From Thermoanaerobaculaceae bacterium (lineage in GTDB: Bacteria > Acidobacteriota > Thermoanaerobaculia > Multivoradales > UBA5704), in contig CAVQIV010000022.1 in NCBI GenBank assembly GCA_963712665.1, positions 279,215 to 343,214 on the forward strand: DNA of 64,000 nt, written 5' to 3'. A model generated the notes under the pieces. It made no database searches and was not told the origin of the DNA. It worked only from the letters and a program-made list of their open reading frames with translations. This document shows, piece after piece, positions 1 through 37,075 of this stretch (position 1 is its first letter; each line of letters begins with the position of its first letter). The position numbers and the translations under genes were made by a program.

Positions 1-1446
1 TGCGCGCGGCGTCGAACAGGTCGACGTTGTAGACCAGGTTGAAGTGGAGCTGGTCGTCCTCGCGGACGTAGAGGGTGAGGTCGAAGTTCGAGGGCGCCGT
101 GGCCGCCGGTCCGCCGGAGAGCTCGAGCCCCTCGATCCGGCGCCTCGTCTGCGGCACGTTGACCATGTTGAAGAACACCTGGAAGAGCGGCGTCCGTGAC
201 AGGTCCCGCTCCGGCCGCATCTCCTCCAGGAGCTTCTCGAAGGGCAGGTCCTGGTGGGCGTACGCCTCCAGGGTCGTCTCCCGCACTTGCGCCAGCAGGT
301 CCAGGAAGGTGGGGGCGCCTGCGAGGCCGGCGCGCAGCACGAGCGGTGTTCAGGAAGCAGCCGACAGCCGTTCCACCTCGGAGCGGTTGCGGCCGGCGAT
401 CGGCGAGCCCACCAGGACCTCCTCCTGGCCGCTGAGGCGCACGAGGAGGACGTCGAAGGCCGCCAGCAGGGTCATGAACAGCGTCGCGCCCGACCGCCGG
501 GAGAGGGCCTTGAGGTCCGCCGTCAGCGCGCGGTGAGAGGGCGAGCGAGCAGCCGGCGCCGCGGAAGGTGCGCACCAGGGGGCGCGGCCGGTCGGTGGGC
601 AGCTCCAGCACCGCGGGCGCGCCGGCCAGCCGCTGCCGCCAGTAGTCGGTCTGACGGGCGAAGAGGCCCTGGCCCGCAGCGGCCCCGCTGCCAGGCCGCG
701 AAATCGGCGTACTGCACAGGCAGCTCGGGCAGCGGCGACGGCTCGCCGCGGGAGAACGCCTCGTAGAGCGCCGCCAACTCGCCGAAGAGAACAGAGAGCG
801 ACCAGGCATCGGCGATTACGTGATGGACCTGGAGCAGCAGGAGGTGCTCCGCCGCCTCGAGCCGCAGCAGCGAGACCCGCAGCAACGGCCCACGCGCGAG
901 GTCGAAGGGTTGATGAGCCAGGGCCACGGCGAGCCGCTCGGCCTCAGTCTCCCGGCCGGACAGACGGCGCAGATCGATCACCGGGAGAGGCAACGCCAGC
1001 CGCGGCTGGACCTCCTGGTACGGCTGCCCGTCCGCGGTGTGGAAGGTGGTGCGCAGCGTCTCGTGCCGCCGCACCACCTCGTCGAGGGCGCGCTGGAGCA
1101 CGCCGGCGTCGAGGCCGCCCGCCAGGCGCAGGGAGGCGGGCATGACGTAGGTGCCACGCCCTGGCTCGAGCTGCTCGAGGAACCAGAGCCGCTCCTGGGC
1201 GGCAGATAGCGGCAGGGGCTGGTCGCGGGGAACTGGAACGACAGGAGGCACCCCCTCCTCGTCCCGGCCGGCCCGCCGGACGGCCTCCATCAGGCCGGCG
1301 ACCGTGGGGCTCTCGAACAGGGCGCGCAGCGGCAGGCTGACGCCGAAGGCGCTGCGCACTCGCGAGACGAGCTGGGTGGCGAGGAGGGAATGGCCCCCCA
1401 GCTCGAAGAAATTGTCGAAGGCTCCCACCCGCTGGAGTCCCAGCAC
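1..1446 (-). CDS. NRPS segment running off the window start: thiolation (PCP) domain plus the condensation domain of the next module; reading frame broken near nt ~520
   Basis: ORF 523..1446 carries the PCP core [10 protein letters not shown], then [19 protein letters not shown] and HHVIADAWS condensation motifs. The reverse complement of nt 1-120 translates in another frame to ...[30 protein letters not shown], a typical C-domain C-terminal region. The protein therefore continues left of nt 1. Confidence 0.7.
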
Positions 1447-2433
1447 CTCCTCCCAGAGGCCGGCGAGCAGCTCCTCCTCGGGCGACCGGGGCGGCCGTCC
1501 ACTCCGCCGCCGTCCGCTCCGTCTCGGGCTCGGGGAGGGCCTTGCGGTCCACCTTGCCGTTCGGGGTCAGCGGCAGCGCCGGGAGCACCGCCCAGGCCGC
1601 CGGCACCATGTGCTCGGGCAGGCGCTCGCGCAGCCAGGAGCGCAGGTCTCCCGCGAGCCCGGGCGCGGCGCCCTCGCGCGGCACCACGTAGGCGGCCAGG
1701 CGCAGGTCCCCCGCCGCCGCCTTGCGGGCCGCCACCACCGCCGCCGCCACCTGCGGGTGCCGGGTGAGCAGCGCCTCGATCTCCCCCAGCTCGACGCGGA
1801 AGCCGCGGATCTTGACCTGGTGGTCCAGGCGGCCCAGGAACTCCAACTCGCCGTCCGGCCGGTAGCGGGCCAGGTCGCCCGTGCGGTAGAGCCGGCCGCC
1901 CGGCTCCGGGCCGAACGGGTCGGGGACGAAGCGCTCCGCCGTCAGCTCCGGCGCGGTTCAGGTAGCCGCGCGCCAGGCCGTCGCCGCCCAGGCAGAGCTC
2001 CCCGGTGACGCCGCAGGGGACCGCGTTCAAGTGCGCGGTCGACGAGATAGACCCTGGTATTGGCGACCGGCCGGCCGATCGAGGGCTCCCCGGGGCCCGC
2101 CGGCGCCCAGGTCGAATAGGTGGTGTCCTCGGACGGGCCGTAGAGGTTGAGCACCCGGCCCACCGTGCCCAGCGCCTCGACGCGGCGCACCAGGGCGCCG
2201 CGTAGCGCCTCGCCCGCCAGGTTGACCGTGCGCACCGAGGGCGGCACCGCCTCCAGGCGCACCAGCTCCGCCATCGCCGACGGCACGGTGTTGATCAGCG
2301 TCACCTCGCCGCGCGCCGGCAGCTCCGGCAGGGCGAGGGCGTTCTCCGCCAGGACGACCGTGCCGCCCCAGGCGAGGGGGACGAACAGCTCGAAGACCGA
2401 GAGGTCGAAGCAGATCGAGGTCGAGGCCAGCAC
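944..2433 (-). pseudogene. NRPS module-11 adenylation domain, C-terminal two thirds, split over at least 3 frames (track ORFs 1942..2433, 1290..2030, 944..1846)
   Basis: [17 protein letters not shown]...[16 protein letters not shown]...[14 protein letters not shown] (A4/A5 region) lies in one frame. [17 protein letters not shown] lies in a second frame. [22 protein letters not shown]...[14 protein letters not shown] (A8-A10) lies in a third frame. Whether these breaks are biological or sequence error cannot be decided from sequence. Confidence 0.6.
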
Positions 2434-35599: not shown

Positions 35600-35761
35600 C
35601 GCCGGGTGGCTCTGCTCCGCCGTGAGCTCGAGGTCCTGGGGATAGTGGTTGCGGCCGCGCAGGATGATCAGGTCCTTCAGGCGGCCGGTGACGAACAGCT
35701 CGCCGTCTCCCTGAATGAAACCGAGATCGCCGGTGCGCAGCCAGGGACCGGACTCTCGCCC

Positions 35762-37075
35762 TCACCCTCGCCCCCGATCATGCGGGCCTGGAACGTCTCC
35801 GTCCGTGGCCTCGGGGCGCTGCCAGTAGCCCTGGGCCACGCTCGCGCCCGCGATCCAGATCTCGCCCACCTGCTCGGGAGGACGTCGCCGGCCCGTCTCG
35901 GGATCGACGATGGCGAGCCGCTGGCCGCCCCAGGCGCCGCCGCAGCCCACCAGCCGGCGGCCCGCGGGATCGAACGCCGCCACCGGCGCCACCCGCCCCA
36001 CCTCCAGGTCAGCGGTGCGGAACGCGCCCACCACCGGCGGCTCGCTCGGCCGGCCCGCCGGAGACGAAGAGCGTGGCCTCGGCCAGGCCGTAGCAGGGGA
36101 GGAAGGCCTCGCGCCGGAAGCCGCAGGCGCGAAGGCCTCGGCGAAGCGGTCCAGGGTCTCGGGCCGCACCGGCTCGGCGCCGTTGAAGGCCACCTCCCAG
36201 GAGGAGAGGTCGAGCCCCTGGCGCTCCGCCGCCGGCACCTTGCGCACGCACAGCTCGTAGGCGAAGTTCGGGCCCCCGCTGGTGGTGGCCCGGTAGCGCG
36301 AGATGGCCCGCAGCCAGCGCGACGGCCGCTGCAGGAAGGCGACGGGCGACATGAGGACGCAGGAGGCGCCCACGTAGAGCGGCTGCAGGACGTTGCCGAT
36401 CAGCCCCATGTCGTGGTAGAGCGGCAGCCAGCCCACGATCACCGAGCTCTCCGACTGGCCGAAGGCCTGGCGGATCATCTCCTCGTTGTGCAGCAGGTTG
36501 CCGTGGCTGACCATCACGCCCTTGGGCGCCGCGGTCGAGCCCGAGGTGTACTGGAGGAAGGCGAGGGTGTCGGCGTCCGCTTCCGGATCGCACCACTGCT
36601 CGGCGAGACCCGGCACGTCCACGGCATCGGTCGCCAGCCAGCGGCTGCGCGCAAGCTCCGGCAGGCGGCCGGCCAGGGCCTCGACCTGGCCCAGCAGGTC
36701 TCCGTGGTCAGCGCCACGGCGGGCCGGGCGTCGCCGGCGATGGCGAGCGCAGGCGCGGCAGCATGCGCGCCGAGCGCGGCGGATAGGCGGGCACCGCCAC
36801 CACCCCGCCGTAGAGGCAGCCGAGGAAAGCGGCGACGAACTCCAGCCCGGACGGATAGAGCAGCAGGGCCCGCTCCCCGTGAGGCCCATCTGCTGCAACT
36901 GCGCTCCCAGGGCGCGGGCTTTGGCGTCGAGCTCGCCGAAGGTCAGCCGCGCGTCCTCGACCTCGCCGTCGGCCAGGAAGGTGTAGGCCGGCCGCTCCGG
37001 GTGCTCCAGCGCCCGCTCGCGCAGCACGCGGACCAGCGAGGGCTCGGGGAGGGGTTCGCGCAGCGCGCTGCTCAT
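35762..37075 (-). pseudogene. Fatty acyl-AMP ligase (FAAL)-type loading domain, N-terminal ~440 aa, with at least 4 internal frame disruptions
   Basis: The ATG is at 37075..37073 (minus), with GGAAGG five nt upstream. The protein starts [60 protein letters not shown]. Further in-frame stretches are TLAFLQYTSGSTAAPKGVMVSHGNLLHNEEMIRQAFGQ...VGWLPLYHDMGLIGNVLQPLYVGASCVLMSP and GCGGAWGGQRLAIVDPETG...GEIWIAGASVAQGYWQRPEATD. The motif FLPCYGLAEATLFVSGG sits in a different frame (ORF 36009..36596). A ~60-aa wrong-frame stretch lies near 36.8-37.0 kb. Confidence 0.65.

Follow-up and report, generated by a model that had tools for sequence, protein, structure and literature searches.

Surfactin- and arthrofactin-type synthetases take up acyl-CoA or an acyl group on an acyl carrier protein (ACP) directly, without any fatty acyl-AMP ligase (FAAL), and D-residues are introduced by epimerization (E) domains or dual epimerization/condensation (E/C) domains. 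PvdL of the pyoverdine pathway has an acyl ligase-carrier unit at its start and the acyl chain is removed later, and the kolossin synthetase of Photorhabdus is encoded by a single gene of ~49 kb with 15 modules and no FAAL start. Fusion of FAALs to non-ribosomal peptide synthetases (NRPSs) is a known arrangement, the vioprolide synthetase being among those listed (PMC11837247), and daptomycin synthesis is initiated by the stand-alone FAAL DptE, the ACP DptF and a specialised first condensation (C) domain (PMC9113097). Precedents exist for FAAL-ACP-NRPS fusions, for starter C domains and for NRPSs of great length encoded by a single gene. The present analysis concerns a putative NRPS gene of this kind in a 64,000-nucleotide stretch (the window) of a Thermoanaerobaculaceae bacterium (assembly GCA_963712665.1, contig CAVQIV010000022.1, positions 279,215 to 343,214 of the forward strand). 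Positions 37075..1 of the minus strand were read, as the probable interpretation, as the first 12,354 codons at least of one giant FAAL-primed NRPS gene from an uncultured soil member of Thermoanaerobaculia (Acidobacteriota), with frameshifts that are most likely errors.

The in-cis order FAAL-ACP-C-A-PCP (A, adenylation; PCP, peptidyl carrier protein) is shared with PvdL and the FAAL-NRPS fusions, and the longest NCBIfam alignment was that of the first 689 residues to positions 10-654 of the PvdL-like model PRK05691. However, the window NRPS greatly exceeds these in length, with at least 12 modules encoded in a single gene, belongs to another phylum and has no E domains, and the PRK05691 score, far below its cut-off (614 vs 4090), indicates that it is not an orthologue. 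The predicted initiation chemistry (fatty acid adenylation, carrier loading and N-acylation of the first residue by an initial C domain dedicated to this step) is that of the daptomycin type, but FAAL and ACP are domains of the synthetase here, whereas DptE and DptF are separate proteins. A putative starter C domain, long colinear C-A-PCP arrays and hydrophobic residues together with Glu/Gln are shared with the cyclic lipopeptide synthetases of Pseudomonas and Bacillus (surfactin, arthrofactin/viscosin type), from which the window NRPS differs in having neither an E domain nor the N-terminal His motif of dual E/C domains. With kolossin synthetase it has its size in common (more than 37 kb, at least 12 modules, apparently one frame after correction), but the sequences are unrelated.

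On the minus strand, positions 1-37075 are not spanned by any single open reading frame (ORF), the largest being one of 4741 residues (16181-30406) with many shorter ones on both sides. By tblastn of one module against the window, the C-A-PCP unit was found tiled from 36.6 kb to base 14 across all three minus frames, and a frame plot of third-position G+C (GC3) agreed with tblastn on the frame changes along the NRPS. The protein was rebuilt by using a codon-usage Viterbi path in which +1/-1 steps were permitted, and the reconstruction ran from Met 37075 (MSSALREPL...) to base 2 with 12,354 residues and zero stops. Pfam was then applied to the frameshift-corrected, module-sized pieces and gave AMP-binding, a DIP2-like C-terminal domain (AMP-dom_DIP2-like) and PP-binding, followed by modules of Condensation, AMP-binding, AMP-binding_C and PP-binding. 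The layout is FAAL-ACP, four C-A-PCP modules, one A-PCP module without a C domain (22288-20435), six C-A-PCP modules and a twelfth C domain; the matches to Condensation (where present), AMP-binding, AMP-binding_C and PP-binding were full-length, and all four families were found in modules 1-4 and 6-11. The FAAL domain lies at 35333..37075, the ACP fused to it at 35009..35221 (residues 623-686 of the FAAL-ACP piece), and modules 1 to 11 at 31826..34939, 28649..31825, 25481..28648, 22289..25480, 20435..22288, 17246..20434, 14027..17245, 10832..14026, 7637..10831, 4423..7636 and 1252..4422, respectively, all on the minus strand. The twelfth C domain (1..1251, minus strand) covers Condensation profile positions 5-417 of 456 and is cut by the window edge at base 1.

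An earlier note, made from the letters alone, had described a FAAL-ACP-C(starter) fusion as the beginning of a window-truncated minus-strand NRPS of at least 11 modules, bounded at 37075 and running past nucleotide 1 within a C domain, with C and PCP domains and no thioesterase (TE) or E domain, and had called for a domain search on corrected ORFs. That search recovered FAAL, ACP, C, A and PCP in the order given; the FAAL start codon falls exactly at 37075, the last Condensation match is the one interrupted at base 1, and Pfam found neither a Thioesterase, an epimerisation-specific or a methyltransferase family nor any other tailoring family in any NRPS piece of the window. The eleven A cores of the note were likewise recovered, with A3 motifs at 33121, 29938, 26785, 23611, 21739, 18583, 15374, 12139, 8965, 5739 and 2540, but its uniform spacing of ~3.2 kb was borne out for nine intervals (3.15-3.24 kb) and not for A4-A5, which is 1.87 kb because module 5 is without a C domain. 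Repeated C, A and PCP domains carry the core motifs of a type I NRPS (HHxxxDG in C; TSGSTGxPK (A3), YRTGD (A7), A8 and A10 in A; GGxS in PCP), and TIGR01733 exceeded its cut-off of 317 bits in the three modules tried (394-438 bits).

For the N-terminal domain, the best matches among solved structures were 7R7E/F/G (E=5e-183), followed by 3KXW (3e-134), FadD32/23/28 and 3PBK, so that all top relatives were FAALs, whereas acyl-CoA ligase structures matched it at E=1e-30 or worse. 7R7E/F/G are from the FAAL of the Picosynechococcus olefin synthase, 3KXW is from Legionella and 3PBK from E. coli, and an insertion specific to FAALs has been described in the N-terminal domain (PMC11837247). The distance between the A5-like and A6-like motifs is 75 residues here vs 46-53 in the eleven A domains of the window, and the extra segment of ~25 residues lies at the site of that insertion, where the stretch aligns to 7R7F with just two one-residue gaps. 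The domain thus appears to carry the FAAL insertion, of which rejection of CoA is the predicted effect. A PP-binding domain follows directly downstream in the same frame. The loci of relatives (L numbers) were fetched via the neighbouring P450-ligase gene, and ~7 kb of each relative's NRPS was covered; the corrected FAAL was 84-87% identical to those of L001-L005 and is the best-conserved part of the NRPS. Judged by its closest structures, the extra residues at the insertion site and the fused carrier, the N-terminal domain is identified as a FAAL.

The C domain that comes first, behind the acyl carrier, shares only 40-45% identity with the remaining ones, which are 49-89% identical among themselves; it has HHLIADF and lacks LPxDxxRP, and these features are compatible with a starter C domain. 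All elongation C domains begin with one common N-terminal stretch. An LPxDxxRP motif downstream of C4 is a marker of the LCL type and is missing from DCL domains, and dual E/C domains are marked by an additional His motif, HH[I/L]xxxxGD, close to the N-terminus (PMC1894796). LPxDxxRP was present, in the form LPxDRPRP, in eight of the ten elongation C domains (C2-C4 and C8-C12); C6 is one residue off (LPTDRPRT), and three uncorrected insertions obscure the motif in C7, whose paralogue C9 carries it. The dual E/C motif was found in none of the 11 complete or partial C domains scanned. The elongation C domains are thus predicted to be of LCL type, and because of this type and of the absence of an E domain and of the dual E/C motif, the visible part of the NRPS should join L-residues only. 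By the established logic of these domain families, the N-terminal FAAL would adenylate a fatty acid and load the fused ACP, the starter C domain would N-acylate the first amino acid, and ten more A-PCP units would lengthen the chain via LCL-type C domains, adding no D-residues here, before the assembly line runs on past the window into a twelfth module at least.

The Viterbi path contained ~44 single-base frame changes (28 insertions and 16 deletions), to which the DNA alignment of module 7 with module 9 added at least three events. On the minus strand they are gathered in the FAAL (36880-35757, seven events), in C2 (31078-30359, three +1 events at ~31078, 30549 and 30359), in modules 7-8 (16601-12695, 24 events by Viterbi, against 30 gap events between modules 7 and 9 when their DNA is aligned, of which the path left three uncorrected) and in modules 10-12 (7159-347, 10 events: a +1 at ~7159 in module 10, ~4026, 2456, 2040, 1952 and 1483 in module 11, ~681, 539, 367 and 347 in the twelfth C domain). 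Module 7 is the most damaged (~19-30 indels, with ~18 events in 1.15 kb of A7), and ~5 frameshifts lie within C8 (13180-12695). The stretches 30371-16297 (14 kb) and 12695-7159 (5.5 kb) hold zero events, and modules 3 and 9 are in clean frame. In eight relatives (L001-5, 8, 10 and 11) the FAAL-ACP-C-A-PCP-C... part is one open frame of 2255-2465 codons, and the DNA alignment to relatives showed gaps or insertions of 1-2 bases in the window only, at 36875, 36747, 36703, 36127, 36046, 35802, 31078, 30549 and 30359. In-frame TGA codons at 35764 and 352 were considered as gene ends or recoding and rejected, conserved protein being present there in another frame.

Base-level resolution was obtained from modules 7 and 9 (86-90% DNA identity). 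In module 7, relative to module 9, 25 insertions were counted, nearly all single-base and ~85% outside homopolymers, and just four internal deletions, all in C/G runs. In nature, slippage in runs is the main source of single-base indels, and pseudogenes of bacteria are biased towards deletions; error-prone long reads are characterised by random insertions together with deletions in homopolymers. The mismatches between the two modules are still biased to the third codon position. Defects of the same kind were found in the SMC gene to the right, a conserved housekeeping gene (residues 908-1175, 95% identical to relatives, in a different frame) and in the permease gene next to the NRPS (garbled codons at 39397-39495). 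With good confidence, the frameshifts are put down to mistakes of sequencing or assembly, lying in patches of low quality in an assembly of long-read type, and not to biology, because they are insertion-biased, mostly outside homopolymers and patchy, affect the permease and SMC genes as well and are absent from relatives, and because the protein is conserved in the shifted frames. That all patches are long-read bridges over internal repeats is only partly tenable, as the single repeat of at least 80% identity covers just modules 7 and 9. This 4.2-kb direct repeat on the minus strand (7471-11615 vs 13894-18029, 86% identical, rising to 96-100% over the C domain's first half) spans the end of A/PCP 8 with module 9 and the end of A/PCP 6 with module 7; C7 and C9 are 89% and A7 and A9 75% identical, and the repeat represents a recent module duplication or gene conversion.

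The alternative that survives best is that the frameshifts are real and the NRPS is a recently inactivated, decaying pseudogene, the loss of the module 5 C domain being part of the same decay. We consider this unlikely. It would account for a C domain absent in frame and for an indel density that in the NRPS, at ~1.2 per kb, is ~10 times that of the remaining 27 kb (three events), and NRPS loss does occur in the group, the related locus L006 being without one. Against decay stand the insertion-biased and mostly non-homopolymer spectrum, the event-free 14 kb and 5.5 kb beside stretches with one event per 60-80 bases, the lack of any nonsense codon after frame correction, the conservation of the corrected FAAL and the same type of defect in permease and SMC, with the 95% identity of the latter in its shifted frame; the extreme clustering, with ~18 events packed into 1.15 kb while an adjacent 14 kb is free of them, is unlike uniform neutral decay.

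Several points weigh against reading 37075..1 as one giant FAAL-primed gene with frameshift errors. Decay would look like the indel excess in the NRPS, the absence of the module 5 C domain may itself signal decay, and self-BLAST gave one repeat of at least 80% identity, so that the patches outside modules 7/9 are unexplained by repeats; the error origin itself is deduced from the sequence and not from reads or quality values. The NCBIfam FAAL models were the best matches of the N-terminal domain yet scored below their curated cut-offs (PRK05850 484 vs 775, FAAL_FadD32 452 vs 975, PRK12476 441 vs 922); these models describe stand-alone, mostly mycobacterial enzymes, and the query is a domain rebuilt across seven frameshifts. 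The substrate readings given below are comparisons with published signatures and not the output of a predictor, and A4 and A7/A9 are without assignment. ADOP permeases are a generic acidobacterial family, and the L006 block without an NRPS weakens the argument from context. Finally, the window holds no TE or release domain, so that a finished product cannot be stated. The main practical result is that automated gene calling here would return the sequence in pieces, with a spurious 'gene' of 4741 residues and a spurious fusion of SMC with DinB, and that module counts and product predictions need prior frameshift correction.

For substrate codes, the eleven A domains were aligned to a GrsA-PheA fragment, and as a self-check of the numbering the A10 lysine fell at 517. 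The codes were DAWFLGHVVK for A1 and A2, DLFNNALTYK for A3, A8 and A11, DMEDIGGVTK for A4, DGKDLGVVDK for A5, DAQDLGLVDK for A6, CVQHIAQVVK for A7 and A9, and DAFFLGVTFK for A10. With DAWFLGNVVK, DAKDLGVVDK and DAQDLGVVDK as the reference codes for Leu, Glu and Gln, respectively, A1/A2, A5 and A6 are near Leu, Glu and Gln; A3/A8/A11 are Ala-like, A10 is Ile/Val-like, and A7/A9 fall in the proline clade. Six relatives (L001-5 and L008) have the same A1 code. A7 and A9 depart from the proline signature, DVQ(F/L/Y)IAHVVK including Asp235, in having Cys in place of Asp235. Among the 120 nearest homologues of A9, Asp235 with a DVQFIA(H/Q)VVK-like code was found in 113 and Cys235 in the other seven, which include the five nearest (59-69% identical) and several from Thermoanaerobaculia and all of which also have His for the usual Phe278. 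Because the same variant occurs in these seven homologues, the Cys235/His278 pair appears to be conserved and not a sequence error. The signature residues of A9 and A7 lie at about 8600-8800 and 15000-15250, respectively. Taken together, the codes suggest the peptide acyl-Leu-Leu-Ala-X-Glu-Gln-Pro*-Ala-Pro*-Ile/Val-Ala-... (Pro*, proline-clade A domain with Cys235).

The acyl group of this predicted peptide might be a transient handle as in PvdL, the final product being non-acylated, e.g. siderophore-like. The alignment of the FAAL-ACP start to PRK05691 favours such a role, but its score against the cut-off of that model does not, and no acylase, siderophore receptor or hydroxamate- or catecholate-forming gene was found in the 27-kb right flank; moreover, most of the residues predicted are aliphatic (Leu, Ala, Ile/Val, Pro-like), a composition that fits an amphiphile and not a chelator, and a temporary acyl group is therefore judged quite improbable.

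Module 5 consists of an A-PCP unit. No Condensation match was found by Pfam in its piece (22288-20435), and after alignment of the junction the distance from PCP4 to the A3 motif of A5 was 236 residues vs 670-685 at the other junctions. The PCP4 serine lies at ~22429; about 15 residues on, at ~22240, there is a stretch resembling a C-A linker, PPAERHRLIQEW, and A5 follows at once. As PPAERHRLIQEW is homologous to the linker normally found after a C domain, ~440 residues are absent here, cleanly and in frame, within the error-free 14 kb, and the missing C domain is probably real. That A5 and A6 are 70% and C4 and C6 66% identical suggests that a module was duplicated and one C domain then lost, or that an A-PCP unit was inserted at a linker. 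As drawn, the transfer of the chain from PCP4 to PCP5 would have no C domain in cis; skipping of the module, a C domain acting in trans, double use of a neighbouring C domain and a dead assembly line are all possible. The earlier note had expected an N-acylated peptide of at least 12 residues; with one module lacking a C domain, simple colinearity and hence this length are not assured.

An arrangement of this type occurs in the uncharacterised NRPS locus L161 (GCA_041494945.1), where the unrelated, intact ORF P0005 (10001-15145) has C-A-PCP-A-PCP, i.e. an A-PCP straight after a PCP without a C domain, so that a C-less module after a PCP is not unique to the window NRPS. L161 differs in its several genes of ~1700 residues, with a stand-alone A-PCP gene first and no FAAL called, and at 45% identity it is not an orthologue. 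The neighbours of P0005 encode A-PCP, A-PCP-C-A-PCP and C-A-PCP-TE, and the locus holds more A-PCP units than C domains. That 37075..1 comprises two or more NRPS genes, e.g. with a break after PCP4 and a second gene opening with module 5, in the usual A-PCP form of an initiation module, and with boundaries masked by errors that could have cost a stop codon, is very improbable, since the PCP4-A5 junction lies within a 14-kb stretch free of frameshifts and stops (31000-16184 open in one frame), all frameshift positions fall inside domains and none between modules, and P0005 shows the same arrangement within one ORF.

It is a doubtful idea that the C-less module and the Cys235/His278 A domains are both real and conserved features of a non-colinear logic (for example a second start inside the line, branching, or the use of one C domain by two carriers) that incorporates an unusual imino-acid-like unit and yields a new lipopeptide chemotype. 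If both were functional, the chemotype would come from a class for which literature searches gave no characterised natural product; these two features stand out in an otherwise ordinary example of a well-understood enzyme class.

In two homologue searches with shorter NRPS stretches, proteins of up to ~1750 and 860 residues were obtained with best identities of 59% and 69%, respectively, and no full-length orthologue. A metagenome scan with the cut C12 domain gave paralogue-level matches only (at most 56%) and no TE. Neither the permease ORF nor the P450-ligase ORF had an exact match in the sequence index consulted.

To the right of the NRPS, a divergent intergenic region of 365 bp (37076..37440) separates it from an ADOP-family duplicated permease on the plus strand (37441..39897); in this spacer a single -35/-10-like site, a match to the consensus only, was seen at 37290-37261 of the minus strand. 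The permease scored 659.6 bits with TIGR03434 (cut-off 622.3) and matched MacB_PCD and FtsX of Pfam. The TIGR03434 cut-off was passed even by the permease ORF ending at 39420, and the second half was recovered past the garbled stretch of ~33 codons (39397-39495), which contains a stop at 39418-39420 and has flanks that match relatives. Because another frame holds the conserved sequence, the garbling is best explained by a closely spaced -1/+1 indel pair. An intact fusion of a cytochrome P450 with an acyl-CoA/AMP ligase follows (39821..43042, plus strand; Pfam p450, AMP-binding and AMP-binding_C_3), which is up to 78% identical to proteins of Thermoanaerobaculia metagenome-assembled genomes (MAGs) and gave the assignment to this class. 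Acidobacteria are among the three groups whose lipopeptide synthetases the earlier note had put forward for comparison.

The order NRPS-permease-P450-ligase was found in nine loci of Thermoanaerobaculia/Acidobacteriota MAGs (L001-5, L007, L008, L010 and L011). Its recurrence where the P450-ligases are 39-78% identical, whether or not an SMC gene follows downstream, argues for a functional cassette of these three genes. A FAAL start is present in eight of the nine loci, i.e. all but L007. In this more distant acidobacterial MAG the NRPS modules adjoin the permease (68-6871) and no FAAL homologue was found in the 7 kb covered; initiation may differ within the cassette family. The Thermoanaerobaculia relative L006 (1-7600) keeps permease, P450-ligase and SMC and has a propeller/Y_Y_Y histidine kinase and hydrolases in the place of the NRPS, which has been gained or lost at this spot. 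The permease and the P450-acyl ligase fusion that the earlier note had taken as the context of a lipopeptide cluster are therefore present and kept together with the NRPS, although their weight is less than it had assumed, given the generic permease family and L006. Thermoanaerobaculia are common, almost wholly uncultured soil acidobacteria. Because no characterised natural product, lipopeptide or described cluster of this kind from the class was found in literature searches, the conserved giant FAAL-NRPS cassette is a reasonable target for synthesis from sequence or heterologous expression.

P450 fusions with an adenylate-forming ligase were also seen in proteobacterial MAG loci (L024, L047, L064, L072 and L073), with a ligase half that is nearer to FAALs (31-35% identical to the window FAAL) than to the ligase half of the window's own fusion. 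Co-occurrence of these fusions with separate FAAL genes was considered and rejected, the 'FAAL' matches being the ligase half of the same fusion.

The SMC proteins of relatives have 1175-1245 residues; in the window the first 905 residues are in frame +1 and 908-1175 in frame +2, with the break at ~45901-45907 and the end of SMC at ~46714. The plus-strand ORF 43186-47238 continues beyond it into DinB_2, a gene of its own (ORF residues 1207-1341), and its reading as one long SMC of 1350 residues was rejected, as it is made up of SMC residues 1-905, an off-frame stretch and then the DinB_2 frame. Genes for SMC, DinB_2, DUF1801, acetate kinase, a Cys/Met-metabolism PLP enzyme, a SulP/STAS transporter, tRNA-Thr and others lie further right, and no MbtH, phosphopantetheinyl transferase, type II thioesterase or acylase was found in this 27-kb flank. 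G+C is 70-76% up to ~46 kb of the window and ~58-68% further right; within 50000-64000 it falls from ~73% to 58-65%, and small genes (GYF_2, glyoxalase, SulP/STAS, HXXEE) and several ORFs without a Pfam match are found there. The overlapping ORF pairs 52451-53455/53169-54251 and 54894-55406/55298-55714 might hide more frameshifts, and the tRNA-Thr(CGT) lies at 59391-59465.

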